Positions 17,765 through 42,071 of a stretch of DNA of 64,000 nucleotides are shown one piece after another (within the stretch, counting starts at the first letter, position 1; each line of letters opens with the position of its first letter). The stretch comes from a candidate division WOR-3 bacterium (lineage in GTDB: Bacteria; Hydrothermota; UBA3072). The position numbers and the translations under genes are program-made. Location of the stretch: contig JAFGHJ010000006.1 in NCBI GenBank assembly GCA_016930175.1, positions 1,160 through 65,159 on the forward strand. Reading direction: 5' to 3'. The notes beneath the pieces were generated by a model, which did no database searches, was not told the origin of the DNA, and was given only the letters and a program-made list of their open reading frames with translations.

Positions 17765-17786
17765 CTACGAGTATCAGCGCAAAAAG

Positions 17787-20681: not shown

Positions 20682-21321
20682 AAAAGGATTGGTAAAGGTT
20701 AACGGGAAAGTAGTATCCGAACCCTTTTTTCAGGTTAATCCTGAGAACGATTTAATAGAATTTAAGGACAGAAGGATTAAAATCCCAGAAGAATGGACTT
20801 ATATAATTTTAAACAAACCAAGAGAAGTTATTACCACGGTCAGAGACGAATTAGGCAGGGAAACAGTAATGGATTTTATTCCCTGTAAGAAGAAAGGACT
20901 GGTCCCTGTAGGCAGATTAGATGAAGAATCCGAAGGACTCATTTTAATCACGAATGACGGAGACCTCGCACATGGATTAACTCATCCTTCTTTTGAAATT
21001 GAGAAAGAGTATGAAGTTACCTTACCCAGATCTCCGGGAAAAGAATTAAAAAAAATGGAAGAAGGGATACGGATAGGCAATGAACATCTAAAGGCAAGCA
21101 GAGTGGTTACAAAAAAAGGAAACAAGGTGATTGTAACTCTGAAGGAAGGGAAAAACAGAGAAATAAGAAGAATGCTCGGTATGTTGGGATACAGGGCAGA
21201 GCGGCTCAAGAGGGTAAGAATCGGAAATCTAAGACTCTCCGGTCTTAAAACCGGTGAATGGAGGGAGCTAACCGAGAAAGAAGTTTCGAAATTGAAAGGT
21301 ATTATTTGTGGAAAAGATTGA
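20614..21321 (+). CDS. rluB: RsuA/RluB-family pseudouridine synthase with N-terminal S4 domain
   Basis: MRIQRFLARAGLASRREA S4 start, GRLDEESEGLILITNDG catalytic Asp motif and GKNREIRRM. It overlaps the scpB 3' end by 68 nt. Confidence 0.85.
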   Translation: MRIQRFLARAGLASRREAKALIEKGLVKVNGKVVSEPFFQVNPENDLIEFKDRRIKIPEEWTYIILNKPREVITTVRDELGRETVMDFIPCKKKGLVPVGRLDEESEGLILITNDGDLAHGLTHPSFEIEKEYEVTLPRSPGKELKKMEEGIRIGNEHLKASRVVTKKGNKVIVTLKEGKNREIRRMLGMLGYRAERLKRVRIGNLRLSGLKTGEWRELTEKEVSKLKGIICGKD

Positions 21322-23899
21322 GTCTTTTGTAGCCGTTGATTTAGAAACGACAGGCCTGGATCCCCAGCTCGAAACAATAATTGAAGTCGGTCTCATTTGC
21401 TTTAAAAACGGAAAAATTAAGGATAAATTCACAAAGACAGTTAATCCGCTCAAAACGGTTTCCGATAACGTCTTAATACTTACCGGAATAAAACAAGAAG
21501 AACTCTTTTCCAGCCCTACTTTAGATAAAATTATCCCGGAAATTAAAGATTTTATCGAAGACAAACCTTTAGTTGGACACAATATTGCATTTGACATTAG
21601 TTTCTTAGAGAAAAGTTTCCCTGTTAAGAATTTAACTTATGATACGTTTAACTTAAGCAGAATATATTTGCCTTTTGTCACAAGCCATAGTCTTTCAAGC
21701 GTTGTGGAATATTTTAAAATTCCCTATGAGAATGCTCACAGGGCAAGCTACGATGCGGAAATGGCAGGCAGAATATTTTTACAGATGTTTGATTTAATGG
21801 CGAATTTGGATCCGGAAATTCTAAAGAACCAATTAGATATAATGGATGGAAAGAGTAATGAATTCGAGGTTATAAAAAAAGCGCTGGAGATTTCTTTAAG
21901 AAAAGGATTAAACAGGAACCCTTATCCCTTCGATATTCCGGTTAATTTCCGGGAGAATAGAGGAAATGGGATTTGCAAAAATTACTCCTCAATAAAAGAT
22001 TATTTCAACAATGAATCTCTGGAGGAAAGAAACTCACAAATTATGATGGCAGAATTAGTTCAATCGACCCTGCTTAATGGGGATTTTCTTCTTGTTGAGT
22101 CATCTGCGGGTACCGGAAAGTCCTTAGCTTACCTTATTCCCGGTATTTTGATGTGCAAAGAAGAGAAAAATCCTATCTATATCTCGAGTTATACAAAAAA
22201 CCTGCAGCAACAGCTTTTTAATAATGACATTCCTTTTGCTGAAGAAATAACAGGCTGCGGGGTAAACACAGTGCTTGAGAAAGGTCGTTCTAATTATCTT
22301 TGCCTTCAGAAAACAAAAGACTTACCCAAAAACCTCGAACCTGTTTCTCTATGTTCTTTACTTTTATGGGTCTTCCTTACAAGGACAGGAGATCTTTCGG
22401 AAATATCCTATGTTTTCAGAGAAATAAATAAAGGTCTGGTATCCATGGACGAATCCTGCAAAAAGGAAGCATGTCCCTATTATAGGGATTGCTTTTTCTA
22501 TAATATGAAGAAAAGATTAAAAGATGCCGACCTTATTCTTGTAAACCATGCTCTTTTTTTTACCGGAAAACCAAGTGCCAGTAATGTCATTTTTGATGAA
22601 GCGCACGAGTTAGAAAAAGCTGCCACTTCGGGATTCTCCATAAGTATAAGTTTCGGGGAAATTCAGTCTGTTCTTAATAACATATCAAGAGGATTAAAGA
22701 AAAGAAAAATCCTCGAGGAAATCAAAAATTTAATCGATAAGGCTAAAGAATCCTTTGAAAAAATCGCAGATAAAGTTCTTTCAGCGAACAATTATCAAGA
22801 AGGGCTATATAGAGGGGAGGATATATCTTCTTTACGTTTTCTCGAGGAAGGCCTGGAAAAAATACTCTCTCTTCTTTCTTCTGTTGAGTTAAAAGACCAG
22901 ACCGAAAAAGAAAAATTGAAAGAAATTATTACGAAAATGAGAGTTATAATAGAACAAGAAGAGAACGACAGGGTTTTTTATTACAATATACCCCATCGTC
23001 AGCGGCTATCTTCGATTGAACTCATAGCGGCACCCCTTGACCTGGCGCCTTATCTTGAAGAATTTCTCTATCCCAATCTCGATTCTTTTGTTATGACTTC
23101 GGCAACTCTCACAGTGGGAGAATCTTTTGATTTCATTAAGAATATTTTAGGATTAAACAGTTTTGGTGAAAGACTAAAGGAAATTTCTCTTCCTGAGACA
23201 TATAAATTAAGAGAACAGGCTTTAACCATCATTCCTGCTTACATCTCTGATCCAGGGGAGGAGAATTTTATTGAACAAGTTAGTCAATTCATAAGAGACG
23301 TTATTCTTCCACAAGAGAGAGGTACCCTGGTATTATTTATGTCTTATAAGCATATGAAAGGGGTATACCAGCAGGTCTCAAGCGATTTTGAGGCACTTGG
23401 CAGAGAACTTTTAATACAGGGTTTTGGTAAATCAAGGAAGAAATTGCTGACTCTATTTAAAGAAAATCCTGCTTCTGTTCTTTTCGGAACAGGCTCATTC
23501 TGGCAGGGAATTGATGTTCCCGGTAAATCGCTTGAGATTGTTGTAATAGAAAAATTACCCTTCCCCAACCCCTCTGAGCCTTTAGTCGGGGCAAAATCAG
23601 CTTATTTTGAGAAAAAAGGTCTTGGCGGTTTTTCTTATTACATACTTCCTCTCTCCGTTTTAAGATTTAAGCAGGGATTTGGAAGATTAATTCGTTCCAC
23701 AAGAGACACGGGGGCAGTTGTCATTCTTGATTCTCGCGTACTTAATAAATCCTATGGTTCTGTGTTTTTGGAATCTTTGCCAACGGAAATTTCCGTGGTC
23801 AGGACAAGTTTAGAAGCCCAAAACGCACTTAATTCATGGTTCGAAGAGGGTAAAATATATAGTGTTTTTACGGAAGATGCAGGATGGGACCCCTTTTAA
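21308..23899 (+). CDS. dinG: DnaQ-like 3'-5' exonuclease fused to a DinG/XPD-family helicase
   Basis: Exonuclease motifs VAVDLETTGL, GHNIAFD and HRASYDAE. Helicase motifs SSAGTGKS (Walker A) and DEAHEL. The Cys cluster is C...CKKEACPYYRDC. GTG start. Confidence 0.85.
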   Translation: MEKIESFVAVDLETTGLDPQLETIIEVGLICFKNGKIKDKFTKTVNPLKTVSDNVLILTGIKQEELFSSPTLDKIIPEIKDFIEDKPLVGHNIAFDISFLEKSFPVKNLTYDTFNLSRIYLPFVTSHSLSSVVEYFKIPYENAHRASYDAEMAGRIFLQMFDLMANLDPEILKNQLDIMDGKSNEFEVIKKALEISLRKGLNRNPYPFDIPVNFRENRGNGICKNYSSIKDYFNNESLEERNSQIMMAELVQSTLLNGDFLLVESSAGTGKSLAYLIPGILMCKEEKNPIYISSYTKNLQQQLFNNDIPFAEEITGCGVNTVLEKGRSNYLCLQKTKDLPKNLEPVSLCSLLLWVFLTRTGDLSEISYVFREINKGLVSMDESCKKEACPYYRDCFFYNMKKRLKDADLILVNHALFFTGKPSASNVIFDEAHELEKAATSGFSISISFGEIQSVLNNISRGLKKRKILEEIKNLIDKAKESFEKIADKVLSANNYQEGLYRGEDISSLRFLEEGLEKILSLLSSVELKDQTEKEKLKEIITKMRVIIEQEENDRVFYYNIPHRQRLSSIELIAAPLDLAPYLEEFLYPNLDSFVMTSATLTVGESFDFIKNILGLNSFGERLKEISLPETYKLREQALTIIPAYISDPGEENFIEQVSQFIRDVILPQERGTLVLFMSYKHMKGVYQQVSSDFEALGRELLIQGFGKSRKKLLTLFKENPASVLFGTGSFWQGIDVPGKSLEIVVIEKLPFPNPSEPLVGAKSAYFEKKGLGGFSYYILPLSVLRFKQGFGRLIRSTRDTGAVVILDSRVLNKSYGSVFLESLPTEISVVRTSLEAQNALNSWFEEGKIYSVFTEDAGWDPF

Positions 23900-25002
23900 A
23901 AAAACCTGTTAAGGATATTCTTTTTGTCACGGTGGGGTATACTATCGGGGGCGCCGAAATTATGATCTCGAGAATTGCCCCCATATTGAAGATGCGTGGT
24001 TATAACGTTCGTGTCGTTGTTTTTAAAGGTTGGGGCCCTGTCTCTGAAAAACTAAAGCGCAGCGGAATCGAATGTATAGCTCTACATGGTAAAGGAAGAT
24101 TTGATTTGCGAATTCTATGGCGATATTTCTTTTACTTAATGGAAAACCCTCCTGATTTAATAATTGCATTTCTTTATCGTGCTTATATTCCAACTCGCAT
24201 TTTTGGATTTCTTCTCGGAATACAAAATATTTCCTCTGTCAGAGGAGTCCGAAAAAGTATGAGCTTAACGAACAAGTTTTTAGACAAAATAACTGTTCCT
24301 TTGAGTCATGTTATATACTCGTGTTCAGGAGCTGTCACAGATTTTCTCGTGAGAGACCTTGGTATTAAAAGAAACAACATCGTTACTATTCCGAATGGTA
24401 TTGAGGTTAAATCTTTTTCCGTTAAATTGGATAAAAACAGAATTTTAAAGGATTTAGGCGTAATTAAGGGTACTAAAGTAGTGGGAACCGTTAGCAGGTT
24501 ATATGAACCAACTAAAGGAATAAAAATCCTGCTTGAAGCTTTCAACATAATTCAAGGCAAAGCAGATTCTCTTTTACTCATTGTAGGCGGAGGTAAAGAT
24601 AAAAAAGAGCTCAAACAAATGGCTGAAAAACTTAAATTAAAAGCCTTATTTTTGGGAGAGCGTAACGACGTTGCGGAAATTCTTTCGATAATGGATGTGT
24701 TTGTTCTCCCCTCTCTTTCTGAAGGTTTTTCTGTCGTTATTTTGGAAGCTATGGCATGTGGCATCCCAGTTGTAGCCACAAATGTGGGAAGCAATAGAGA
24801 AGTTGTATTAAACGGAAAAACAGGCTTTGTTGTAGAACCGGGTAATCCTTATGAATTAGCAGATAAGATTAAAAAACTCCTCGAAGATAAGAAAATGAGA
24901 AAACTTTTTGGGAAAGCAGGCTTTAAGAGAGTTAAGGAATATTTCTCATTAGATAAAACCGTGGCCAGCATCGAGAATCTTTGGAAAGGAGCTTTACAGT
25001 GA
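23884..25002 (+). CDS. family 4 (GT-B) glycosyltransferase
   Basis: C-terminal FVLPSLSEGFSVVILEAMACGIPVVATNVG (EX7E region). Confidence 0.85.
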   Translation: MGPLLKKPVKDILFVTVGYTIGGAEIMISRIAPILKMRGYNVRVVVFKGWGPVSEKLKRSGIECIALHGKGRFDLRILWRYFFYLMENPPDLIIAFLYRAYIPTRIFGFLLGIQNISSVRGVRKSMSLTNKFLDKITVPLSHVIYSCSGAVTDFLVRDLGIKRNNIVTIPNGIEVKSFSVKLDKNRILKDLGVIKGTKVVGTVSRLYEPTKGIKILLEAFNIIQGKADSLLLIVGGGKDKKELKQMAEKLKLKALFLGERNDVAEILSIMDVFVLPSLSEGFSVVILEAMACGIPVVATNVGSNREVVLNGKTGFVVEPGNPYELADKIKKLLEDKKMRKLFGKAGFKRVKEYFSLDKTVASIENLWKGALQ

Positions 25003-25967
25003 AAAGAGAAAACATACTTGTTACCGGCGGCGCCGGATTCATCGGTTCACACCTCGTTGAAAGATTGATTGAAAAAGGATATTTTGTTATATGTCTTGAT
25101 AATTTTAATAACTATTATGATCCCGATTTGAAAGAAAAAAATATTTCAGGTATTATTGAAAATCCGAATTTCAAACTAATTCGCGGAGACATATTAGACG
25201 TTTTTCTTCTCGATGATATTTTTTCCGGAACGCAAAACCCAACACCCGGCAAAATTGTCCATCTTGCCGCCATGGCAGGAGTCCGTCCTTCTATTGCCAA
25301 CCCGGGTATTTATGTGGATGTCGATGTTAAAGGCACTGTTAACTTGCTGGAAATGGCGAAAAAATACAATGTGGAACAGTTTATATTTGCTTCTTCTTCG
25401 TCTGTTTACGGATTAAACAAAAAAACGCCTTTCTCGGAAGATGACCCTGTAGAACTCCAGATTTCCCCTTATGCGACAGCTAAAAGAGCTGCAGAAATAT
25501 TTTGCAAAACATATAATAATCTATATAGAATACCTGTCACTATTTTAAGACTTTTTTCGGTATACGGCGAAAGACAACGTCCCGATATGGCAATAAGAAA
25601 ATTTACAAAACTTATATTGGAAGACCAGCCGATAAAGATGTTCGGGGATGGCGAGTCAGAACGAGATTATACTTATATAAGCGACTGTATTGATTGTATC
25701 TTATCTGCCATAATTAAACCATTGGATTTTGAAATAATTAATGTAGGAAGCGGGAGAACCATAAGATTAAAAAAACTTATTGCGGTTTTAGAAGAAGTTA
25801 TGAGAAAAAAAGCCCGGATACAACAACTCGATGTGCATCCGGGGGAAGTACCAACTACCCATGCTGATACAAGCAAGGCGAAAAAACTCTTAAATTATAA
25901 ACCAAAAATCACTATTGAAGAGGGAATCAGAAAATTCTTTGAATGGCATAAAAAGACCCTGACTTAA
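24999..25967 (+). CDS. NAD-dependent nucleotide-sugar epimerase/dehydratase (SDR family)
   Basis: VTGGAGFIGSH Rossmann motif and YATAK catalytic motif. GTG 24999 follows GGAAAGGAG and overlaps the upstream stop as GTGA. The TTG at 24981 in the ORF track is less likely. Confidence 0.85.
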   Translation: MKRENILVTGGAGFIGSHLVERLIEKGYFVICLDNFNNYYDPDLKEKNISGIIENPNFKLIRGDILDVFLLDDIFSGTQNPTPGKIVHLAAMAGVRPSIANPGIYVDVDVKGTVNLLEMAKKYNVEQFIFASSSSVYGLNKKTPFSEDDPVELQISPYATAKRAAEIFCKTYNNLYRIPVTILRLFSVYGERQRPDMAIRKFTKLILEDQPIKMFGDGESERDYTYISDCIDCILSAIIKPLDFEIINVGSGRTIRLKKLIAVLEEVMRKKARIQQLDVHPGEVPTTHADTSKAKKLLNYKPKITIEEGIRKFFEWHKKTLT

Positions 25968-26037
25968 CTTTGAAACAAAAAGAAGAAACTATGGACTCGA
26001 TAGAAATATTAAATTTGAAATTGCAAAGGAGGAATGT

Positions 26038-27189
26038 GTGAAAGTCCCTTTGTTAGATTTGAACCGCCTTTATAATTCTATAAAAGAAGAAATCAACAAG
26101 GCAATTGAAAAAGTCTTAATTTCTCAGCATTTTATTCTCGGAGAAGAAGTGAAGCAATTAGAGGAAAAAATCGCCGCATATTGCGGCACCCGCTACGCGG
26201 TCGCTTGCGCTTCCGGAACTGATGCGCTTTTGCTGAGTTTGAGAAGTTTAGGAGTAAAAAGAGGAGATTTTGTAATAACAACACCTTTTTCTTTTTTCGC
26301 TACAGCGGGAGCCATTCATAATGTAGGTGCAATTCCAATCTTTGTTGATATTAAACCGGATACATATAATATCGACCCGAAACAAATAAAGGACTTATTA
26401 GATAAAAAATCATTCCATACAAAAAGGCTGAATGTAGAAATATCGAGAATAAAAGCAATAATACCCGTGCATTTATACGGACAGATGGCTGACATGGATC
26501 CTATAAATAACATAGCAAAAGAGTATAATTTAGATGTTATCGAAGACGCCTGTCAGGCTATAGGAGCTGAATATAAAAGTAAAAAAGCAGGCTCTATAGG
26601 CTCAACGGGCTGTTTCTCTTTTTTCCCCACAAAGAACTTGGGAGGCTACGGAGACGGAGGAATAATAACAACCAACAGGGAAGAACTTTCACTTGAACTA
26701 AAAAAACTAAGAGTTCATGGTTCCGAAAGAGATTATCATCATTTATCTGTGGGATACAACAGTAGATTGGATACAATACAGGCGGCTGTTCTTTTAGCGG
26801 AGTTCCCTCACCTTGATGATTGGAATAAGAAGAGGCAAGAAAACGCAAAGATTTATTCTGATTTGTTAAAAGACATCGAGGAAATAGACTGCCCGCATGT
26901 TGCAGGTGAACATAAGCACATTTTTCATCAATACACTATTCGTGTGAAGAATAATAAAAGAGATAAGCTTATGGGTTTTTTAACGCAAAAAGGCATTGGA
27001 AATAAGATATATTATCCCTCACCTCTACATTTACAGGAATGCTTTAACTATCTTAGTTATAAGCAAAGGGATTTCCCTGTCTCAGAAAAAGCTGCTGAAG
27101 AAGTCCTCTCTTTACCTATCTTTCCTGAGTTAACCGATGAAGAAATCGAATATGTTTGCGATTCCACAAAATCTTTCTTAGTAGATTAG
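26038..27189 (+). CDS. DegT/DnrJ/EryC1/StrS family sugar aminotransferase
   Basis: FILGEEVKQLEE, SGTDALLL, FSFFPTKNLG (PLP lysine) and YNSRLD motifs. GTG start follows AAGGAGG. Confidence 0.9.
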   Translation: MKVPLLDLNRLYNSIKEEINKAIEKVLISQHFILGEEVKQLEEKIAAYCGTRYAVACASGTDALLLSLRSLGVKRGDFVITTPFSFFATAGAIHNVGAIPIFVDIKPDTYNIDPKQIKDLLDKKSFHTKRLNVEISRIKAIIPVHLYGQMADMDPINNIAKEYNLDVIEDACQAIGAEYKSKKAGSIGSTGCFSFFPTKNLGGYGDGGIITTNREELSLELKKLRVHGSERDYHHLSVGYNSRLDTIQAAVLLAEFPHLDDWNKKRQENAKIYSDLLKDIEEIDCPHVAGEHKHIFHQYTIRVKNNKRDKLMGFLTQKGIGNKIYYPSPLHLQECFNYLSYKQRDFPVSEKAAEEVLSLPIFPELTDEEIEYVCDSTKSFLVD

Positions 27190-27324
27190 GTTAGGAATAC
27201 TTAAATATTACAATTTATGTATTAATGGCTATATTCTACAAATTATATTTAATCGTAAAAACCTCAAAGCATTTTACGCTTGTTTTTTTGTTCGTTCATT
27301 ATAATTTTATAATTGAAAAATAAT

Positions 27325-28272
27325 ATGAAATATCTTATTACGGGTGCGGCAGGTTTTATAGGTTCCAATATAACTCGAAGATTGTTGAAAGATAATTGTA
27401 AGGTGAGGGGTTTTGATAATTTCTCGACCGGTAGACGAGAAAATCTGGAGGATTTAAAGGGAAAAGATAACTTTAAACTTATAGAAGGGGATTTGAGGAA
27501 TCCTGCCGAAATAAGAGAAGCAGTCAAAAATATAGATATTATCTTACATGAAGCTGCCGTCCCTTCGGTACAACGCTCGTTAGAGAATCCTGTTTTGATT
27601 AACGAATCAAATATTAACGGTACTTTAAATTTATTGATAGCTGCAAGGGAAGCAGGTGTGAAAAAAGTGGTATATGCAAGTTCCTCTTCGATTTATGGTC
27701 TTAACAAAAAGTTACCCAAAATAGAAGCTATGCCTGCTGAACCTATTTCTCCTTATGCCCTTTCCAAATATACCGGCGAAAGATATTGCCAGATTTTTTA
27801 CGAAATATACAATTTACCTACAATATGCTTAAGGTACTTTAATGTTTTTGGTCCTTATCAAAACCCGGATTCAGAATATTCGGCAGCAATCCCTATATTC
27901 ATAAATCGAATACTAAAGGATAAGCAGCCAGTGATTTTCGGAGACGGTGAGCAATCTCGAGATTTCACTTATGTCGAAAATGTCGTGGAAGCTAACATCC
28001 TCGCCGCCAATTCTAAAGTAATGGGAGAAATTATAAACATCGCCTCTGGAGAAAGGATAACTATTAACGAGGTAGTGCACATATTGAATAAATTTTTAAA
28101 CAAAAAAACCGAACCAGTCTATAAAGAATCCAGGGTCGGCGAAGTTAAACATTCTTTAGCTGATATTAGTAAGGCAAGAGAGAAAATCGGATATTTCCCC
28201 AAGTTTAAGTTCATTGAGGGGTTGAGAAAGACTGTTGAATGGTATCAGACACGGGAAAAACAAATTTCTTGA
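27325..28272 (+). CDS. NAD-dependent nucleotide-sugar epimerase/dehydratase (SDR family)
   Basis: ITGAAGFIGSN and YALSK motifs. ATG 27325 (MKYLITGAAG) is preferred over the TTG at 27313. Confidence 0.85.
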   Translation: MKYLITGAAGFIGSNITRRLLKDNCKVRGFDNFSTGRRENLEDLKGKDNFKLIEGDLRNPAEIREAVKNIDIILHEAAVPSVQRSLENPVLINESNINGTLNLLIAAREAGVKKVVYASSSSIYGLNKKLPKIEAMPAEPISPYALSKYTGERYCQIFYEIYNLPTICLRYFNVFGPYQNPDSEYSAAIPIFINRILKDKQPVIFGDGEQSRDFTYVENVVEANILAANSKVMGEIINIASGERITINEVVHILNKFLNKKTEPVYKESRVGEVKHSLADISKAREKIGYFPKFKFIEGLRKTVEWYQTREKQIS

Positions 28273-28399: not shown

Positions 28400-29626
28400 T
28401 TGAGCCTTATTAAATATACGCGATATAAAATAGTTTACTTTACTCCTCAATGGTTGAAGCGTTTAATTTATAATGTATGGAGATTATACTGGAAATTAAA
28501 AACAAAAGTATTACCGGATAAATATCACGTTGACCCCTATGCTGACGATGGCATCATACTTGTTAACCCTGAGAATATAATTTTTGCAATGAAGAAAGAA
28601 TTCGATGTTTTTAAATTCAAAGGAAGAGTTGTAAGCGGCAACTGGGACAAAGAAGTTATGGAATTTGAAAAGCTTGATTTTTTTACATCTTATAAGAAAA
28701 AATTTGAAGAAAAACTACAATGGGAAAATACCGAATATTATCAGAGAGTAGCAGAACAAATAAAAAATGGAAACTTCAAGTGGTCCTGTAAAAATGTGGA
28801 AGAATTCAATAAAAAGTGTGCAGAATGGGATAGACTGTTTGAGAAAATAAAAAAAGAAGGATATAAAAGGGGCTGGCATGAAGATGAAGTTTCAGTCAAC
28901 ATCGGTAGAAACGGTGAACTGATTTTCAATAATGGCAGACACAGGCTTACCTTTGCAAAATTACTAAAAACAGAGGAAATACCGGTAAAAGTAACATCTC
29001 GACATAAAGAGTGGGTAGCCTTCAAAAAAGAAATCCTTGAATATTCACTTAATAATAAAAATAGAGTCTACGAAAAATTAACTCACCCGGATCTCGCAAA
29101 CATCCCATCTGTACATAACGGCAGCAGATATGATATAATAAATGAACACTTAACGGTTGCAAAAGTTAAATTACTGGATATTGGCTGTCACTGGGGTTAT
29201 TTTTGTCATAAATTCGAAGAAGCAGGTTTTGAATGTTACTGTGTTGAAAAAAGCCAGTTAAATTTATATTTTTTGAAGAAATTAAAGGAGGCTGAAAACA
29301 GAAAATTCAAGATAATACCTCATTCAGTATTTGATATACAAAGTGATACTATCAGAGAGTGCGATGTTATTCTGGCCTTATCTGTATTTCACCATTTCAT
29401 AAAAAAAGAAAGCACATACAGAAAATTAATAAAATTTCTACAAATCCTAAAGGGGAAAGAAATGTTTTTTGAGCCACATAATCCAAGGGAACCTCAGATG
29501 AAAAAAGCTTATAGAAACTTTGTGGATGAAGATTTCGTGGCATTTATAATTGAAAATTCATCTTTTAACAATTTTAAAATCATAGGGTATTCAGAAGTGG
29601 GCAGACCAATTTATAAGATATATTAA
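28400..29626 (+). CDS. two-domain protein: central ParB/Srx-like region plus C-terminal class I SAM methyltransferase
   Basis: VSVNIGRNGELIFNNGRHRLTFAKLLKTEEIPVKV resembles the ParB/sulfiredoxin-fold core. LLDIGCHWGYF...VILALSVFHH resembles methyltransferase motifs I and post-II. The TTG start is uncertain. Confidence 0.55.
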   Translation: MSLIKYTRYKIVYFTPQWLKRLIYNVWRLYWKLKTKVLPDKYHVDPYADDGIILVNPENIIFAMKKEFDVFKFKGRVVSGNWDKEVMEFEKLDFFTSYKKKFEEKLQWENTEYYQRVAEQIKNGNFKWSCKNVEEFNKKCAEWDRLFEKIKKEGYKRGWHEDEVSVNIGRNGELIFNNGRHRLTFAKLLKTEEIPVKVTSRHKEWVAFKKEILEYSLNNKNRVYEKLTHPDLANIPSVHNGSRYDIINEHLTVAKVKLLDIGCHWGYFCHKFEEAGFECYCVEKSQLNLYFLKKLKEAENRKFKIIPHSVFDIQSDTIRECDVILALSVFHHFIKKESTYRKLIKFLQILKGKEMFFEPHNPREPQMKKAYRNFVDEDFVAFIIENSSFNNFKIIGYSEVGRPIYKIY

Positions 29627-29638
29627 TCTAAATTAGAA

Positions 29639-30799
29639 ATGCATAAAAAAAAGAGAATTTGTGTAATATCATTTAGTGACTTGAGAAAAGACCCCAGAGT
29701 ACGAAGACAAATTTTTGCTTTAAAAGATACATATGAGGTGACATCTTTAGGATTAAAAAAAAGCGGCATAAAAGGAATTGATGAGCTTATCATCCCGGAT
29801 CCTCGAACGTTTCTCAAGAAATTGAATAGTCGACTAACTTTTCTTTTAGCCAGATTGCTTATTTTTTTGTATAGAAATTACATAAAGAAAAAATACCCGA
29901 TAAAAGCTATACTTGACCTTACAAAAGAACGACGTTTTGATCTCATAGTGGCGAATGGCTTAGATTCTCTGGTAATTGCGCATTCAATTGCAGATAAAGA
30001 CGGAGCGAAAATATTATTCGACGCACACGAATATGAACCAAGAAGGATTGAAGATCACTGGTTCCACAAATTGTTTGTAAACCCATATAAAGATTTTCTA
30101 TGTAAGAGATATCTTCCTTTTATAGATGCAATGACAACATCTTCTTTCGGCTTCGCCAGGGAATATCACAAACAGTATGGCATTGAATCTGAAATAGTAA
30201 AGAATGTCCCAAGATACAAAAAATTTAGTTTGGGAGAAGTAACTTCAAATAATATAAAACTAATTCACCACGGATATGCACATCCAAGCAGAAAATTAGA
30301 ACAAATGCTCAAGCTTATGCCCTTACTTGAAAAAAGATTTAATTTAACCTTAATGTTGGTGGGAGAAAACAAGTATCTTAAACATCTAATGCGATTAAGC
30401 GCAAATTTGTGCCCGGAAAGAATAGTTTTTAAAAAACCGGTTTCCTTCGACAAAATAGTACCAACAATCGCAAAGCATGATGTTGGTTTGCTAATAATCG
30501 AACCGACTTCATTAAAGCTAAAATACGCTTTGCCTAATAAACTTTTCGAGTCTATAATGGCTGGCTTATGTGTCATCTCCGGGCCTTCTCCCGAGATGGT
30601 AAAAGTAATAAAGGAATATAATTGTGGTTTTGTCGCGGATTCCTTTAATATCAAAAATATCGCACAGATGATAAATTCTTTAACTGTAGAAGACATTAAA
30701 GAAAAGAAAAAAGCTTCTCTGGAAGCAGCTAAATTTTTAAACGCCGAGAATGAAATGGAAAAATTTTACAAAATAATTAGAAATTTGATAGGAGATTAA
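29639..30799 (+). CDS. putative GT-B fold glycosyltransferase
   Basis: 386-aa ORF in the glycan operon with PNKLFESIMAGLCVISG near the C-terminus. No firm family call. Confidence 0.5.
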   Translation: MHKKKRICVISFSDLRKDPRVRRQIFALKDTYEVTSLGLKKSGIKGIDELIIPDPRTFLKKLNSRLTFLLARLLIFLYRNYIKKKYPIKAILDLTKERRFDLIVANGLDSLVIAHSIADKDGAKILFDAHEYEPRRIEDHWFHKLFVNPYKDFLCKRYLPFIDAMTTSSFGFAREYHKQYGIESEIVKNVPRYKKFSLGEVTSNNIKLIHHGYAHPSRKLEQMLKLMPLLEKRFNLTLMLVGENKYLKHLMRLSANLCPERIVFKKPVSFDKIVPTIAKHDVGLLIIEPTSLKLKYALPNKLFESIMAGLCVISGPSPEMVKVIKEYNCGFVADSFNIKNIAQMINSLTVEDIKEKKKASLEAAKFLNAENEMEKFYKIIRNLIGD

Positions 30800-30800
30800 T

Positions 30801-31991
30801 GTGCAACAAAAACGAATTTTGATGTTAGGTCCTGTAGATTTTTCAATAGACGACGCTCCTAAAGTTCATTTTTCAAATTTAGCTAAAGAGTTCTCTAAAC
30901 TTGGCCTCGAAGTACTATGTGTGGTTTATGCTCCAAAAAAGTACACTATAAGTACGGTTGCAGATAAACCTAAAGTTGTTTTTGCGCCTAATCCACTCAG
31001 AGGAAACTTATTTCTTCGTACTCTTAAATATATATTTTTTATACCTGTATTACTATGGAATTTTTTAAAATTCGGCCCTTTTATAGTCTACTTCAGATTT
31101 TCTCCCCCTGCTTTTCTCTATTTACTATTTTTGAATTTAATAAAAATATTCTTCAACTTTAAAATAATTCTTGAATTTAACTCCTGGGTTCCCGAAGAAA
31201 GAGCAATAGAAGGCGAAGGGAAATTAAAGGTTAAATTTATTGATTTTCTGCAGTTAAAGAGCATTGCTCTGGTAGACCATGTGCGTGTAGTAACTCCCGG
31301 GATCAAAGATAAGATGAATTCCCTCGGAGTAGATTGTTGTAAGGTTGCCGTAATTGGAAACGGGACGGACATAAAACATTTTAAACCTATTAATAAAAAA
31401 GAAGCGAAAGAGAAAATTGGTCTTGAACCTGATTTTTTATACGTTGGATTTATAGGTAATTTTGCAGTCTGGCAGGGACTTAACTATCTGCTTCAAGCGA
31501 TACCGGAAGTTTTAAAATCGCATAAAGATGTTAAGTTCCTTCTCGTAGGAGATGGACCTGAAATGGCAAAGATTAGAAAAGCGGTTTTAGAATTAGAGAA
31601 AGAAAAAATCATACTCACAGGTAAAGTACCCTACCAGGAAACCAACTTATATATTAACGCATTTGATATCGGTGTTGCGCCTTTTATAAGAAAAAGAAAT
31701 GAAAGTATAGGTTTATCTCCTTTGAAAATACGTGATTACGCTGCCTGCGGGGTTCCTATCATTACTACCAGAATAAGAGGCTTAGAAATGGTAGAAGAGA
31801 AAAATATTGGGGTGCTAGTTCCGCCAAATGATTCCAGCGCCCTGTCGAACGCAATAATAAAACTAATCGAGAATCCGGATTTGAGGATTAGAATGGGTAG
31901 AAGAGGAAGAAAGGTCGCAAAAAAAGAGTTTTCATGGGAGAATGTCGCCAGGAAAATTCTGTATAAGATTGAAAAAGCCTCCCGCGCTTAA
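30801..31991 (+). CDS. family 4 glycosyltransferase
   Basis: GNFAVWQG and SPLKIRDYAACGVPIITT motifs and GT-B C-terminal domain layout. GTG start follows AGGAG. Confidence 0.75.
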   Translation: MQQKRILMLGPVDFSIDDAPKVHFSNLAKEFSKLGLEVLCVVYAPKKYTISTVADKPKVVFAPNPLRGNLFLRTLKYIFFIPVLLWNFLKFGPFIVYFRFSPPAFLYLLFLNLIKIFFNFKIILEFNSWVPEERAIEGEGKLKVKFIDFLQLKSIALVDHVRVVTPGIKDKMNSLGVDCCKVAVIGNGTDIKHFKPINKKEAKEKIGLEPDFLYVGFIGNFAVWQGLNYLLQAIPEVLKSHKDVKFLLVGDGPEMAKIRKAVLELEKEKIILTGKVPYQETNLYINAFDIGVAPFIRKRNESIGLSPLKIRDYAACGVPIITTRIRGLEMVEEKNIGVLVPPNDSSALSNAIIKLIENPDLRIRMGRRGRKVAKKEFSWENVARKILYKIEKASRA

Positions 31992-32138: not shown

Positions 32139-32981
32139 ATGAATAAAATAGTCACTTATGAACCGGATAATTCAATAAAAAAGGGATATATTTCTTTATG
32201 GAAGGAAATCATCTGGGAGCTGAAACATAATAAGTGGCTTACTCTACAGTTATTTAAACGAGATTTTTCCTCTATTTACAAACAATCTTTGATGGGTGTT
32301 TTTTGGGCTTTTATAGTCCCCTTAATAAGCGTGGGAACATTCATAATACTTAATCGCTCAGGTATCTTCGAATTTGGAGAAATAGAGGTGCCCTATCCTA
32401 TTTATGCGATATTGGGTATGGCTTTCTGGCAAGTGTTCTCGACAGGCTTAATAACCACATCGATTTCCCTGGTTAAAGCCGGCTCAATGCTGGTAAAAAT
32501 AAATTTTTCTAAAAAATCTCTTGTAATTGCATCCGCGGCCCAATCGTTAATACCGTTTATAGTACAGATGATATTAGTAGGGGTTTTATTTGTGGTTTAT
32601 CAGGTCTCCCCAAGCATAAAAATTCTGTTTTTCCCGTTCTTTATGATACCTATAATTTTCTTAACTCTCGGTTTAGGTTTCATTCTATCTCTCTCTAACA
32701 GTGTGGTTAGAGATATCAGTAGTGCCCTATCCGTTTTTATGACTTTTTTCATGTTCTTAACGCCTGTATTATACGCGAAACCTAAAATAGGTGCCCTTGC
32801 TCCCCTTACGAAATTCAATCCCATTTATTATCTGATCTCCATACCTAGGGAACTAATATTAAAGGGCACAATTAGCGAATGGAAGGGTTATTTGTTATCC
32901 GTTGGTTTTTCTTTCATTGTTTTTGGTGTGGGGCTGGTACTTTTTCATCTCACGGAAACCCGAATAACGGAGAGAATATAA
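32139..32981 (+). CDS. wzm: ABC-2 type polysaccharide export permease
   Basis: 280 aa with about 6 TM helices and an N-terminal LFKRDFSSIYKQSLMGVFW motif typical of Wzm/TagG/KpsM permeases. Confidence 0.85.
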   Translation: MNKIVTYEPDNSIKKGYISLWKEIIWELKHNKWLTLQLFKRDFSSIYKQSLMGVFWAFIVPLISVGTFIILNRSGIFEFGEIEVPYPIYAILGMAFWQVFSTGLITTSISLVKAGSMLVKINFSKKSLVIASAAQSLIPFIVQMILVGVLFVVYQVSPSIKILFFPFFMIPIIFLTLGLGFILSLSNSVVRDISSALSVFMTFFMFLTPVLYAKPKIGALAPLTKFNPIYYLISIPRELILKGTISEWKGYLLSVGFSFIVFGVGLVLFHLTETRITERI

Positions 32982-33043: not shown

Positions 33044-33406
33044 ATGTTCCCCTTTGAGAAATTAGAAACCTGGCAGCTTGCAAAAGATTTAGCTATAAGT
33101 ATTTATAACATAAGTAAAAATTTCCCAATAGAAGAACAATATGGCTTGGTAAATCAGATAAAACGCGGAGTGATCTCAGTGGCTTCGAATTTGGCTGAAG
33201 GAAGTTCTCGTATTAGCAAAAAAGAACAAGCCCACTTTTCACAAATTTCATATAGCTCTTTAATGGAAGTGATGTGTCAATTAAATATTGCTCTGGAGCT
33301 AGGCTTTATCGAAGAAGAAGAATTTCAAAATTTACGCGAGAAGATAAGAACAGTATCAATCAAGATAAATGCTTTAAGGCGTTCACAGAGAGAAAGAATG
33401 AAATGA
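33044..33406 (+). CDS. four-helix-bundle protein (23S rRNA intervening-sequence protein / Avd-like family)
   Basis: MFPFEKLETWQLAKDL...QIKRGVISVASNLAEGSSR...SYSSLMEV resembles this family's hallmarks. ATG 33044 is preferred over the TTG at 33017. Its stop overlaps the wzt ATG as ATGA. Confidence 0.75.
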   Translation: MFPFEKLETWQLAKDLAISIYNISKNFPIEEQYGLVNQIKRGVISVASNLAEGSSRISKKEQAHFSQISYSSLMEVMCQLNIALELGFIEEEEFQNLREKIRTVSIKINALRRSQRERMK

Positions 33407-34698
33407 AAAACAATTCAACAATTCAACAATTCAACAATTCAACATCAAGTGAAATAGCAATTAAAGTTGAGAACGTTTCAAAAAAATACTGCAAATCTTT
33501 AAGAGGGTCTATGCTTTATGGCATGAAAGACATCGCCAGGAATTCTTTAGGCTTGAGTTCTAACTCTCATATTTTACGAAAAGACGAATTCTGGGCGGTA
33601 GACGATGTTTCTTTCGAAGTCAAAAAAGGAGAAACTTTAGGTATTATAGGAGCCAACGGAGCCGGCAAGACTACGATTCTAAAAATGTTGAATGGTATAT
33701 TTTGGCCGGATAAAGGTAAAATAACAATTAAAGGTAGAGTTGGCGCTTTGATTGCAGTTGGCGCGGGATTTCATCCGATGTTAACGGGAAGGGAGAATAT
33801 TTATCTAAATGGCGCAATACTGGGCATGAGTAGAAAAGAAGTCAATAAAAAATTTGGTGCAATAGTCGAATTTGCTGATATTGGGGATTTTTTAGACACC
33901 CCAGTAAAATTTTATTCCAGTGGTATGTTCGTCAGACTAGGCTTTTCCATTGCAGTACACTGTGAGCTAGATATATTATTGGTGGATGAGGTGCTGGCGG
34001 TGGGGGACCTTTCGTTTCAAAACAAAAGCCTTCGAAGATTAGCTGAGCTCCGAGAGAAAGCAAATGCTGTAGTCTTTGTCAGTCATAATTTGGAACACGT
34101 GAGAAATCTGTGCGACAGAGTTATGGTTTTGGATAAAGCTAAGATAGTATTCTCAGGAGATACTAATGAAGCTTTATCAGAGTACCACGAAAGGACACGT
34201 GAAAAGAAATTAATTGTTATTAAAAATAGAAAAGCTTTTCATTCAGCTTTACATCAATCTTCAGGGGACATAATTTTCGGTGACACAGGCATTTCAGACG
34301 AATCTGGTAACAGAACTGAGAAGATTAGACTTGGAGAAACACTTACAACTTTCTTTGAATTTGAAACAACAAAAAAACTTGAGGAACTCTTTTTTACAAT
34401 TGGGATTAGGGATGAAAGGAACTACAATTGTATAGTACATATAAGCGATTACGCCGATAAAATCAAATTTAGAAATATCTCGAAAGGTAAATACAGGTTA
34501 ATTGTGAAATTCATAACACCAAATTTGGTTCCCGGGTTGTACTTCCCTGTAATCGCTATAAGAAATGGAGTGACCAATGAAACCTATGAGAGAATATTTG
34601 ACTTAAAACCGTTTATCATTGAAGGTAATATACTCCCAAGAGGGATAGTATATACCGAAAGCGAATGGAAGTTATGCCCAATTTCAGAAAGAGATTAA
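33403..34698 (+). CDS. wzt: polysaccharide ABC exporter ATP-binding protein with a ~180-aa C-terminal extension
   Basis: Walker A GANGAGKTT, signature YSSGM, Walker B ILLVDE, then a beta-rich C-terminal domain. ATG 33403 is preferred because the conserved IAIKVENVSKKY block starts 17 codons later. The start at 33274 in the ORF track would overlap the upstream gene. Confidence 0.9.
   Translation: MKNNSTIQQFNNSTSSEIAIKVENVSKKYCKSLRGSMLYGMKDIARNSLGLSSNSHILRKDEFWAVDDVSFEVKKGETLGIIGANGAGKTTILKMLNGIFWPDKGKITIKGRVGALIAVGAGFHPMLTGRENIYLNGAILGMSRKEVNKKFGAIVEFADIGDFLDTPVKFYSSGMFVRLGFSIAVHCELDILLVDEVLAVGDLSFQNKSLRRLAELREKANAVVFVSHNLEHVRNLCDRVMVLDKAKIVFSGDTNEALSEYHERTREKKLIVIKNRKAFHSALHQSSGDIIFGDTGISDESGNRTEKIRLGETLTTFFEFETTKKLEELFFTIGIRDERNYNCIVHISDYADKIKFRNISKGKYRLIVKFITPNLVPGLYFPVIAIRNGVTNETYERIFDLKPFIIEGNILPRGIVYTESEWKLCPISERD
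33411..33444 (+). repeat. perfect tandem octanucleotide repeat, (CAATTCAA)x4 plus CA
   Basis: Units at 33411, 33419, 33427 and 33435, lying in codons 3-14 of wzt. Confidence 0.95.
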
Positions 34699-34704
34699 AA
34701 AACT

Positions 34705-35448
34705 GTGAGATTAATAAGATTAATTAGAAAAAGAAAGAGGGAATCTGATAAAACTCCAAAAGAAGAGCTAATAATTGATGAGCAATTAATCCAGGATTTG
34801 ATTGATTTCACAGGATTGAACAGGGATTACATAACGAAACATCTGAATAGAGTGGAAAATTGTACTTATGTTTATGAATATAAGGTGAGAAACCCGAAAA
34901 ATGATTCAGAATTGGATTGGTTTTACGTTACTAGTGAGAAGTATCTTTTCGCAAATATTGTTCACAAGCCCTGGGAACTGATAGATATGGTCCGCGGAGA
35001 GAAAATTCTTGACTACGGAGGTGGCGCTGGCACAGATACTTTCTATCTTACAGATAAGGGATATAATGTTCATTATTTTGATATTTCGATAACTCAAAGA
35101 GAATTTGTAAAATTTAGGAAGAATAAATACAAATTGGATAATTTGACCATTATCGAACCTTTTTTCAATTCAAAATTCGACCCGATAAACTGCATCACTG
35201 AAACTTATGATGGGATACTTGTTAGGAGCCTTCTTGAACATATTCCATATTACCCAAAATTAGTTGAACGTCTGATTTCAAAATTAAACGAGCATGGTAT
35301 TATATATGAAGCCTCGAAGTTTAGCAAATCAGAAAAAGACCCTATGCATATCTCTGAAAAAGAATCTTTGGAAGAAATTCTTAAAAGTCATAGAATGAAA
35401 TTAATATATCAGAAAGGTATTCATAGATGTTGGGAAAAACTAACTTAA
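34705..35448 (+). CDS. class I SAM-dependent methyltransferase
   Basis: ILDYGGGAGTDTFYL (motif I), YFDIS and ILVRSLLEHI. GTG start. Confidence 0.75.
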   Translation: MRLIRLIRKRKRESDKTPKEELIIDEQLIQDLIDFTGLNRDYITKHLNRVENCTYVYEYKVRNPKNDSELDWFYVTSEKYLFANIVHKPWELIDMVRGEKILDYGGGAGTDTFYLTDKGYNVHYFDISITQREFVKFRKNKYKLDNLTIIEPFFNSKFDPINCITETYDGILVRSLLEHIPYYPKLVERLISKLNEHGIIYEASKFSKSEKDPMHISEKESLEEILKSHRMKLIYQKGIHRCWEKLT

Positions 35449-37016
35449 AGGGACGTTTAAAATTTGTCTTTTTATGGCATTGGCAAAAGAGACTGACCAG
35501 AGAAAAAAATGCAGTATTTGCAGTTCCGGATTCACTGATAAATGCTATAGGAAAACTTTCTTCGGAGTATTCTGTAAAAATCGTCGCTTTATCAAAAAAA
35601 AGAAATTATAATGTATATTCACCAGAACAAAATATAGATTACGTTTTTAGGGTATCACTGAAGAGGATAATTACCGCAACTACCCAAATCGACCCCGATT
35701 TTCTATTAATAAGTCACCATCCATATCCATATGAAGAATTACAAAAAAACCTAGATTCCCTAAGAGCGAAAAAATTTATATATTATAGTGCACCCATAAA
35801 GGAACTTAATGAATACCACAGAAAAATGGACTGCCATATCGTGCATCATGAATATCAAAAAGAAATCCTGAAAAAGAAAGGATTTAATCCTGAAAAGATA
35901 TTTATCGTTCCTAAAACTGCAGACATGAAAACATTCAAGCCATTGGCGGTCGGGAAAGAGTGGGATTGTATTTATCCCATGAGAGGAACTATCGGTTACT
36001 GGAAACGACCGGAACTTGCAATTAAGGCATGTAAAATCAACAATATGTCGATTATAATGCCTGGAGCCAAGATACCCTCAGAATACCATTGGGTAACAAC
36101 ACTGAATGAATGGAAAACTCCAGAGGAATTATCGGTCCTCTATAATCAATCGAAATGTTTAGTTATAACATCAAATGAATCAGAGATGGGGCCTAGGGTC
36201 ATTCCTGAGGCAGCTGCGTGTAATATTCCTATTGTATGTTGCAGTGATAGCCCGGCATGTGTTTCCCATGTCAAGAAAATTGGCGGGTTCATCGCAGAAC
36301 CAGATCCGGAAGACATTGCCGAGAAAATAAAACTTGCTATACAAGAAAAAGTCAATACCCGGCAGAGACTCATAGAACTGGGCTTCGACTATGACCTTAT
36401 TTACAGAGCATTATCCGGTATAATAAAAAACCTTGTAGAAACTATAGTAGGATCGAAAAAAAATCTGAGACAACATTGGGAGGAGAAATACAAAACGAAT
36501 CTCGAAAAATGGAAAAAGGATTGGAGACTAATTCTATATGAATGGGTACTTGAAGACATAATGGATGATAAATGTTCAATTATTGACATCGGTTCCGGTC
36601 CGGGATATGGGTTAGAAAGAATCAAAAAAATTCGACCTAACGTAGAGGTATGTGGAGTAGATTTCTCCACAGAAGCAGCGAAAAAATCTGTAGTCCCGTT
36701 TGTTCAAAAAGACATCATAAAAGACAGCTTATCTTCACTAAGCGCAGATTATGTACTATGCATAGAGACTTTGGAACATTTTAAGAATCCATATTACGTA
36801 TTGGATAAAATCATACCGATTGCAAAGAAGAAGGTTATATTAACCGTTCCTTATAAAGAGAATATTTCTAATCATACAGAACATGCGTCGGTATTCAGCA
36901 AAAAATCATTCAGAGAATATAATATCGAAAATATTAAGATTGAAAGGAGAAGTAAAGGAAAAATAATGAAAGTGGTTATAAATGCCTCTAAAAAAGGTAC
37001 CACTAAATATTATTAA
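35427..37016 (+). CDS. fusion of a GT-B glycosyltransferase-like domain and a class I SAM methyltransferase
   Basis: N-terminal part SNESEMGPRVIPEAAACNIPIVC (EX7E-like). C-terminal part IIDIGSGPGYGL...VLCIETLEHF. Confidence 0.7.
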   Translation: MLGKTNLKGRLKFVFLWHWQKRLTREKNAVFAVPDSLINAIGKLSSEYSVKIVALSKKRNYNVYSPEQNIDYVFRVSLKRIITATTQIDPDFLLISHHPYPYEELQKNLDSLRAKKFIYYSAPIKELNEYHRKMDCHIVHHEYQKEILKKKGFNPEKIFIVPKTADMKTFKPLAVGKEWDCIYPMRGTIGYWKRPELAIKACKINNMSIIMPGAKIPSEYHWVTTLNEWKTPEELSVLYNQSKCLVITSNESEMGPRVIPEAAACNIPIVCCSDSPACVSHVKKIGGFIAEPDPEDIAEKIKLAIQEKVNTRQRLIELGFDYDLIYRALSGIIKNLVETIVGSKKNLRQHWEEKYKTNLEKWKKDWRLILYEWVLEDIMDDKCSIIDIGSGPGYGLERIKKIRPNVEVCGVDFSTEAAKKSVVPFVQKDIIKDSLSSLSADYVLCIETLEHFKNPYYVLDKIIPIAKKKVILTVPYKENISNHTEHASVFSKKSFREYNIENIKIERRSKGKIMKVVINASKKGTTKYY

Positions 37017-42055: not shown

Positions 42056-42071
42056 AGAAAGGGTAAATTTG

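Follow-up and report, generated by a model that had tools for sequence, protein, structure and literature searches.

A candidate glycan kinase–methyltransferase that joins a ParB/sulfiredoxin-type domain to a WbdD-like methyltransferase in a WOR-3 bacterium

In a 64,000-nucleotide stretch of DNA from a candidate division WOR-3 bacterium (GenBank assembly GCA_016930175.1, contig JAFGHJ010000006.1; the whole stretch is called the window here), one gene encodes a 408-residue protein, the target, in which a divergent ParB/sulfiredoxin (Srx)-type domain precedes a methyltransferase homologous to that of the O-antigen chain terminator WbdD. We propose that the target adds methyl phosphate to a glycan, with its N-terminal domain (N-domain) as the kinase and a WbdD-type methyltransferase as its partner, and on sequence and model comparisons we put the chance of this at about even. 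For O antigens that leave the cell by an ABC transporter, the textbook example of termination and export recognition is the methyl-phosphate cap added by WbdD. Sulfiredoxin, SerK and SbnI are phosphotransferases of the ParB/Srx fold, which pass a phosphoryl group from a nucleotide to protein sulfinic acid or serine. To our knowledge, only two kinase–methyltransferase pairs are known. The new element here would be a kinase–methyltransferase glycan modifier whose kinase fold has been replaced, and alignments and predicted models leave that claim evenly balanced.

An earlier sequence-only reading had described the gene as a ParB/sulfiredoxin-like domain fused to a methyltransferase and had suggested that it performs the work of WbdD with unrelated parts. 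Its core idea, a ParB/Srx-fold kinase coupled to a phosphate methyltransferase, is well supported by the sequence and model comparisons below but unproven. Profile and structure similarity, motif residues and locus context were the places where that reading could have failed by its own conditions, and it failed in none of them.

A conserved two-domain family

The gene and its parts are as follows.

28400..29626, + strand: target gene, two-domain protein of 408 aa (open reading frame (ORF) listing; TTG start, stop codon included)
28400..28534, + strand: residues 1–45, basic, aromatic-rich N-terminal helices (AlphaFold2 model, composition)
28535..29065, + strand: residues 46–222, ParB/sulfiredoxin-fold domain, divergent and carrying a ~65-residue helical insert (model, fold search, hhalign)
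29066..29623, + strand: residues 223–408, WbdD-like class I S-adenosylmethionine (SAM)-dependent methyltransferase domain (Pfam, Protein Data Bank (PDB) profile, VIA-align, hhalign)

The ORF contains both strings quoted in the sequence-only reading, VSVNIGRNGELIFNNGRHRLTFAKLLKTEEIPVKV at residues 164–198 and LLDIGCHWGYF at residues 258–268, and its N-terminus is common to full-length homologues of 408 aa. A word-indexed protein search returned 430 homologues at E ≤ 0.001, nearly all covered over their full length, and an exhaustive search of 1.84 billion representatives returned 397 at E ≤ 1e-30. A 34-sequence family alignment, with identity down to 41%, has 29 invariant columns spread across both halves. 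Because of these many full-length homologues and the invariant columns in both halves, the alignments identify the target as a member of a genuine two-domain family rather than a chance motif. No prior description of this family was found in the literature searched, most subscription journals being outside its reach.

A family scan of one genome per species gave 68 loci, in WOR-3/Stahlbacteria, Chloroflexota, Omnitrophota, Cloacimonadota, the candidate phyla radiation (CPR), Planctomycetota, Desulfobacterota, Proteobacteria, Bathyarchaeota, Thermoplasmatota and haloarchaea. The gene is single copy in its own genome. Within its own phylum it is present in 11 of 121 genomes sampled, all from its own family, and within its own genus in 7 of 13 other genomes (8 of 14 including the source genome), a patchy distribution that fits a variable surface-glycan gene. 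The orthologue of one genome of the same genus (G011:C7:55131-56348) reads through one in-frame TGA, for which a pseudogene, a sequencing error and recoding are all possible.

The full-length AlphaFold2 model of the target has a predicted local distance difference test score (pLDDT) of 88.1 and a predicted template modelling score (pTM) of 0.82. The helices at residues 3–14 and 17–37 are modelled with lower pLDDT (58–74), and the composition of residues 1–45 suggests that they possibly associate with a membrane.

The methyltransferase domain is homologous to that of WbdD

The class I methyltransferase that the sequence-only reading had placed in the C-terminal half is recognized by Pfam at residues ~245–348 (Methyltransf_12, E 1.8e-7; Methyltransf_11, E 8.8e-6), with Methyltransf_23 among the weak matches; an NCBIfam scan gave sub-threshold methyltransferase matches and nothing else. 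Four comparisons point from this broad class to WbdD. First, in a search of PDB sequences with the family profile, WbdD accounts for each of the top 4 distinct sequences (E 0.0046–0.0063). Second, Foldseek with the full-length model ranks WbdD first (E 3.1e-10). Third, the best VIA-align match is WbdD 4azs (Z 17.9, root-mean-square deviation 2.7 Å, 187 residues aligned, 20% identity), with residues 207–408 of the target model lying on WbdD 4–209. Fourth, hhalign of 34 family methyltransferase domains against residues 1–230 of E. coli HS WbdD gives a probability of 96.4% (E 1.3e-9, 170 columns), in an alignment that extends to the last residue of both domains. The reference sequence is the 708-aa gene that follows wzt in the E. 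coli HS O9 locus, annotated as a class I SAM-dependent methyltransferase and taken as wbdD from its position and length.

The hhalign alignment pairs the following residues.

29069..29071, + strand: Y224, paired with WbdD Y16; invariant in 34 sequences
H229, paired with WbdD H22; invariant in the 34-sequence alignment
R243, paired with WbdD R36; at least 90% conserved
E283, paired with WbdD D82; invariant
29390..29395, + strand: H331-H332, paired with WbdD H132-H133; H331 invariant, H332 at least 90% conserved
29603..29605, + strand: R402 (RPIY), paired with WbdD R203 (RPMY); invariant in 32 of 32 diverse sequences

WbdD R36 and D82 bind SAM, and the substitutions Y16F, H132A, H133A and R203A abolish methylation and leave phosphorylation intact; the O8 enzyme, which methylates a hydroxyl, has no counterpart of R203, H132 or H133 (PMC3482155, partial text). 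We conclude from these alignments and models that the methyltransferase of the target is homologous to that of WbdD over the whole domain and keeps the residues for phosphate methylation.

The N-domain has a ParB/sulfiredoxin-type fold with its phosphate motif

Two short elements of the N-domain stand out.

28643..28648, + strand: W82-D83, an invariant pair in the N-terminal strands (invariant in both family alignments)
28934..28948, + strand: G179-R180-H181-R182-L183, equivalent of the G-x-x-R phosphate-binding box II/P-motif (aligned to ParB and SbnI)

Folded separately by AlphaFold2, residues 46–222 give a model with pLDDT 90.8 and pTM 0.85. Among the 30 Foldseek matches listed for it, 28 are sulfiredoxin, ParB, KorB, Noc, SbnI or PadC and the other 2 are 'hypothetical' entries; the best E value is 6.2e-3 and probabilities are 0.95–0.99. 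Of 48,161 representative chains compared by VIA-align, plant sulfiredoxin scores highest (Z 5.8, 85 residues aligned), followed by human Srx, KorB, PadC, SbnI, Atu1540, SerK (Z 4.2) and two ParBs at Z 4.0–4.6. Other rows of similar Z span only the helical insert (model residues ~46–113); among these is an intraflagellar-transport IFT-A chain at rank 2, which we rejected on that ground.

Sequence profiles converge on the same fold. Aligned by hhalign against the N-domains of 14 chromosomal ParBs from genomes related to the source genome, 254 family N-domains match with a probability of 85% (E 6e-6, 54 columns), the helix-strand-strand-GRHRL (179–183)-helix-IPV run of the N-domain falling on the ParB box II region with its GHRRF. 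In a search of PDB sequences with the N-domain profile, three SbnI chains (E 0.046–0.15) are the best natural proteins among six matches, and the dG-r-H-R-L of the N-domain aligns with the D-G-V-H-R of SbnI. The top match in that search, the de novo designed helical protein 8fjg (E 0.0049), covers the insert only and was rejected as a composition effect. A weak PP_kinase_N match on the helical insert (E 0.015, below the cut-off, in 4 of 34 members) was likewise treated as chance, and a search of the ESM Atlas with the N-domain provided no lead, its best score (0.83, to unnamed clusters) being within the range of shuffled proteins.

Conservation of the motif goes far beyond what chance would produce. 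H181 and R182 are invariant in both family alignments, as is G172; G179 is at least 90% conserved in both, and position 180 is R or A. R170, R201 and H202 vary little or not at all, and the same holds for W82-D83, W108, W128, C130 and W205; W82-D83 is a candidate for an acceptor-binding residue and a catalytic base. The fold searches, profiles and models together indicate that the N-domain has a ParB/sulfiredoxin-type fold with an intact nucleotide-phosphate motif and that it is too divergent for Pfam's ParB models. The fold and motif seen in the sequence-only reading are thus borne out by Foldseek, VIA-align and hhalign with the PDB profile, with Pfam silent. Its claim of 'unrelated parts' stands for the proposed kinase, whose fold differs from that of the WbdD kinase, and fails for the methyltransferase, which is homologous.

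The N-domain also occurs on its own

The census of the 68 loci was as follows.

Fused form only: 53 loci
N-domain only: 8 loci
Methyltransferase only: 4 loci
Mixed or split: 3 loci

N-only proteins, of 240–275 aa, keep the WD, WGC, VNIGRxG, NxG[RA]HRL, IPV and RH motifs, and their genes adjoin Wzx, Wzy and glycosyltransferase family 1 (GT1) and GT2 genes in both bacteria and archaea. Among the best 120 N-domain profile matches, 17 are shorter than 300 aa, about 14 of them seemingly complete and 3 partial-looking, and one database protein consists of GT4 and the N-domain without a methyltransferase. These sequences describe the N-domain as an autonomous module whose motif seems to matter.

Two loci show what can accompany loss of the motif. 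In Muiribacterium (L051:8652-10999), an intact N-only gene is followed by a fused gene, the stop of one overlapping the start of the other, and the N-domain of the fused protein has NSGVFLL in place of NNGRHRL and has lost the WGC motif too; the two proteins may work as a heteromer. In Sorangium (L056:8688-10750), a WbdD-like methyltransferase is kept with an N-domain remnant that has no motif, and a gene for an APH-family phosphotransferase (E 4.6e-18) lies divergently adjacent, which from the sequences looks like the replacement of one kinase type by another. At a methyltransferase-only locus, L060, a CotH kinase gene lies ~4 kb away. No other copy of the N-domain was found at E ≤ 1e-10 in the genomes of L056, L060, L062 and L066, and no APH- or CotH-type kinase was seen among the annotated neighbours of 14 intact-fusion loci, a comparison of small numbers in which the loci are not phylogenetically independent controls.

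The family belongs to glycan loci with different export routes

Pfam annotation of genes within 5 kb at 14 loci (124 proteins) found a glycan cluster at 13, the exception being L026. Ten family proteins of 467–2503 aa were also scanned, and five of the six with at least 749 aa carry GT2 or GT4/GT1 domains, one long fusion having a TagF-like domain as well. The architecture is thus found with glycan genes and not with the DNA methylases that the sequence-only reading had named as the other possible setting. In Cloacimonadota, 2,500–3,850-aa open frames at five loci (L015, L024, L027, L029 and L030, from ~10000) begin with a module of the target type, and in a representative protein, P0127, this module is followed by GT2, GT4 and TagF-like glycerophosphotransferase domains. 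In the cultured gammaproteobacterium Catenovulum agarivorans (L035:2917-6504), the family member adjoins genes for a Maf-type flagellin glycosyltransferase, a PseB/CapD-like dehydratase and a GT8; it may modify a flagellin glycan there instead of a polysaccharide.

The export genes differ from locus to locus. Among the 14 annotated loci, Wzm/Wzt with a Wzt_C domain occurs in L003 only, Wzx-type flippases (Polysacc_synt) occur in L006, L018, L022, L023, L025 and L032, and Wzy_C occurs in L006, L008, L018 and L031. Three of these loci, L003, L006 and L008, share their left flank (helicase, GT4, dehydratase and DegT) with the window. From these settings, the family enzyme looks like a general glycan-decorating module for any export route.

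A chain-terminating role is plausible in the window

In the window, the target lies among the following genes.

23884..28272, + strand: GT4, 4,6-dehydratase/epimerase, DegT aminotransferase and epimerase, upstream of the target (Pfam)
29639..31991, + strand: two GT1/GT4 glycosyltransferase genes between the target and wzm (Pfam)
32139..32981, + strand: Wzm-type ABC-2 permease (Pfam ABC2_membrane, E 1.3e-10)
33274..34698, + strand: Wzt ATPase with C-terminal Wzt_C carbohydrate-binding domain (Pfam ABC_tran; Wzt_C, E 6.5e-11)
34705..37016, + strand: methyltransferase directly after wzt and GT1–methyltransferase fusion, rival candidates for a cap enzyme (Pfam)

The Wzt_C match agrees with the C-terminal extension that the sequence-only reading had seen in the neighbouring Wzt. 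As listed, the wzt ORF begins with GTG and spans 474 aa, longer than its relatives (411–434 aa) and than E. coli O9 Wzt (431 aa). Translation probably starts at M44 (33403) instead, from where the protein would be exactly 431 aa long. By BLASTP, the ATPase domain of the window Wzt matches O9 Wzt at 38% identity (256 aa), and the C-terminal binding domains of the two gave no alignment.

Export in this locus goes through Wzm and a Wzt with a Wzt_C domain, so a methyl phosphate may act there as a cap that Wzt reads. By analogy with WbdD, a chain-terminating cap in this locus is conceivable, though we think it rather unlikely; as a role for the gene it is plausible here and is not a property of the family. 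Four observations count against it. The target has no coiled-coil ruler, the longest helices of its model being 21 residues. The locus holds four other genes with methyltransferase domains, one of them at the wbdD-like position after wzt. Searches of the 68 loci with the window Wzm and Wzt as phmmer queries found Wzm in 6 and a close Wzt in 5, all in loci whose family member is at least 57% identical to the target. Finally, L006 and L008, whose family members are 60–61% identical to the target, continue with Wzy_C (L006 also with Wzx) and not with Wzm/Wzt. The analogy with the chain terminator drawn in the sequence-only reading thus holds as far as the Wzm/Wzt pair and Wzt_C of the window go, and does not extend to the relatives in Wzx/Wzy-type loci; co-occurrence with an extended Wzt, which it had proposed to survey, was confined to close relatives (6 of 68 loci) and is not supported as a general rule. 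As for the two rival candidates at 34705..37016, searches of the PDB returned no WbdD chain at E ≤ 1 for either (0 of 25 and 0 of 8 matches); their matches are N-methyltransferases and others.

The glycan locus as a whole (23884-46374) is long and rich in decorating genes. Its four further methyltransferase-domain genes are at 34705-35448, 35427-37016 (with a GT1 half), 39357-40154 and 41297-42055. A pyruvyl transferase (37044-38126) and a sulfotransferase (42069-43013) are encoded there too, along with at least 8 glycosyltransferases. Directly upstream, at 21308-23899, is a DinG-like helicase of 863 aa with an N-terminal DEDDh exonuclease domain, and the junction between helicase and glycan locus is kept in L003, L006 and L008. 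Farther upstream, 15523-18407 carries a gene of the lipid A acyltransferase family and a GT2, then SurE and PCMT; in this uncultured lineage the acyltransferase is consistent with a diderm envelope whose outer membrane is built on lipid A.

Proposed activity and its alternatives

On this evidence, the target is probably a cytoplasmic, membrane-associated, bifunctional enzyme of glycan modification. Its N-domain would bind a nucleoside triphosphate (NTP) through G-x-H-R and the neighbouring conserved R and H residues and would move the terminal phosphate onto a sugar hydroxyl of a lipid-linked glycan, in a chemistry like that of sulfiredoxin, SerK and SbnI. The WbdD-type domain would then methylate the new phosphate with SAM, leaving a methyl-phosphate substituent, which in this locus might serve as a non-reducing-end cap that stops polymerization and is read by Wzt. 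We infer NTP binding, kinase activity, acceptor, product and capping role from sequence and from analogy with characterized enzymes.

Several results weigh against this proposal. For the fold, Foldseek with the model of residues 46–222 gave no match at E ≤ 0.001, and the VIA-align Z values are low by the tool's own warning, the method being independent of Foldseek. No ParB family in Pfam matches the target at E ≤ 10, such families match 0 of 34 family members, and a six-frame PF02195 search of the source genome found the chromosomal ParB only and not the N-domain of the target. The lines of evidence for a ParB/Srx fold are each weak alone (Foldseek E 6.2e-3, Z 5.8, no Pfam match), but they agree. 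The residue before the motif glycine (N178 in the target) is N or D in the family and D in SbnI, and among proteins of the ParB fold many act as switches or binders and not as kinases. For the methyltransferase, the next unrelated structure, SgvM, has a VIA-align Z of 17.1 against 17.9 for WbdD, a lead of less than 1 that is inside the tie margin of the tool. Searched against the PDB, a profile limited to the last 89 residues gave chance matches and no WbdD chain; because of this result, the correspondence of R402 with R203 is taken from the hhalign alignment to E. coli HS WbdD.

The alternative that survives best, which we consider unlikely though far from negligible, is that the methyltransferase acts directly on a sugar hydroxyl, as in O8 WbdD and WsaE, or on a carboxylate (a uronic acid or pyruvate ketal), and that the N-domain senses nucleotide, oligomerizes or binds the acceptor and is no kinase. 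NTP-dependent switches make up most of the characterized proteins of the ParB fold, and no NTP was bound by 17 of 28 purified members (PMC12704722, partial text). Paired His residues are not confined to phosphate methyltransferases, His-His or Tyr-Tyr being described in NodS and RebM; the same source reports that R203 is lacking in the O8 enzyme and in other sugar methyltransferases (PMC3482155, as far as its available text goes), and all four WbdD residues for the phosphate substrate are conserved in the target family. The four invariant tryptophans of the N-domain (W82, W108, W128 and W205) would suit sugar binding, the R/H/H cluster might accommodate a carboxylate no less than a phosphate, and pyruvyl transferase genes are present in the window locus, L051 and L060. 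Set against these points, the G-x-H-R phosphate motif is kept, with H181 and R182 invariant, and would be needless for a mere adaptor; the nearest natural sequence relative of the N-domain is a kinase, SbnI. The loci without an intact motif speak on both sides: loss of the motif is accompanied by the adjacent intact N-only gene in L051 or by the APH kinase gene in L056, but no kinase was found near L052, L054, L062 and L066, leaving the pattern in 2 of the 6 methyltransferase-only or degenerate loci.

It is improbable that the enzyme acts instead on a soluble nucleotide-sugar, with the ParB/Srx domain holding, for example, CDP, CMP or dTDP (cytidine or deoxythymidine phosphates) and the methyltransferase modifying the amino-deoxy sugar that the adjacent dehydratase and aminotransferase would make. 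The target follows a block of 4,6-dehydratase, DegT and epimerase genes that is kept in L003, L006 and L008 despite their different export genes, DegT genes lie close to L025 and L051 as well, and ParB proper binds cytidine nucleotides. Such precursor genes were not seen at L018, L022, L023, L031, L034 and L035, however, and the fusions to multi-glycosyltransferase proteins and to GT4 point to a growing lipid-linked glycan. WbdD, the nearest relative of the methyltransferase, works on a polymer-bound phosphate, and the N-only forms have no methyltransferase to serve. A third alternative, a nucleic-acid methyltransferase with a ParB-type domain for binding DNA or NTP, like the ParB–methylase fusions of phages and plasmids, is close to refuted: phage-enriched ParB-fold fusions to N6_N4 and Methyltransf_23 are known (PMC12704722, partial text) and Methyltransf_23 is a weak match in the target, but Pfam finds neither an N6_N4 (PF01555) methylase domain nor a helix-turn-helix (HTH) in it, its loci are glycan clusters in 13 of 14 cases, the fusions so far known involve glycosyltransferases, its nearest structural match is a glycan enzyme, and no mobile-element genes were seen beside it in the window.

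Comparison with known systems

Transfer of phosphate by the N-domain followed by methylation, as we propose, would place the target beside two characterized kinase–methyltransferase terminators. Like WbdD of E. coli O9a and Klebsiella pneumoniae O3 (PDB 4azs, 4azw and 4uw0), the target has the homologous methyltransferase over its whole length, with conserved counterparts of Y16, R36, D82, H132, H133 and R203 in its family, and is a two-domain protein, its second activity predicted, from a locus where Wzm is accompanied by a Wzt with a binding domain at its C-terminus. The order and nature of the domains differ: the kinase of WbdD is protein-kinase-like and follows the methyltransferase, whereas the ParB/Srx-fold domain of the target precedes it, Pfam finds no kinase family in the target, and the protein ends with the methyltransferase at residue 408. 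Unlike WbdD, which has 708 aa, the target has neither the coiled-coil ruler nor a C-terminal membrane helix, its gene is not directly after wzt, and most members of its family are outside ABC-transporter loci.

In Klebsiella O7, the same methyl-phosphate cap is made by a methyltransferase and a kinase unlike that of WbdD, described as AmiN-like after the amicoumacin kinase AmiN; in K. pneumoniae O7 these form a terminator, ORF6, fused to GT2 modules (PMC11231755, partial text). Fusions to polymerizing glycosyltransferases occur in the target family too (P0125, P0127 and the Cloacimonadota giants). The methyltransferase of ORF6 resembles CgnL and not WbdD, a comparison made by description only, and ORF6 has a coiled coil and a carbohydrate-binding module, unlike the target (PMC11231755, in the part available).

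With Staphylococcus SbnI, the N-domain shares 28–31% identity over 58–78 aligned residues in fold searches, with G-x-H-R aligned, and with Thermococcus SerK and sulfiredoxin it shares the core fold (VIA-align Z 4.2 and 5.8). The substrates of these three enzymes are serine or protein sulfinic acid, not a glycan; compared with SbnI and SerK, the N-domain also has the helical insert of ~65 residues, and their C-terminal domain is replaced by the methyltransferase. The resemblance to the ParB, KorB and Noc CTP hydrolase (CTPase) clamps lies in the GRHRL of the N-domain, aligned with box II GHRRF at the probability of 85% given above; unlike them, the target has no HTH or dimerization domain and no PF02195 match. 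A fusion of a ParB fold with a SAM-dependent methyltransferase, not necessarily of the target family, is reported to bind ATP (PMC12704722, partial text).

Implications

The N-domain may found a new class of carbohydrate kinase on the ParB/sulfiredoxin fold, used alone, with a WbdD-type methyltransferase or with glycosyltransferases, a suggestion that we place slightly short of even. Surveys that started from Pfam's ParB models may have missed the target family, because it is invisible to those models. If the proposed activity is right, the target would be a third kinase–methyltransferase pair, and a function would be given to a family of 397 representative clusters (E ≤ 1e-30) that extends from WOR-3 and CPR bacteria to haloarchaea. 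Sugars would then join protein sulfinic acid and free serine on the list of ParB/Srx-fold substrates, and the family would also serve as an annotation marker for phosphate-decorated glycans. If the new class of carbohydrate kinase is real, unrelated folds would have taken over the kinase role of the pair at least three times (protein-kinase-like, AmiN/APH-like and ParB/Srx), and decoration of surface glycans with phosphate or methyl phosphate would be common across uncultured phyla, well beyond the few enterobacterial O antigens.

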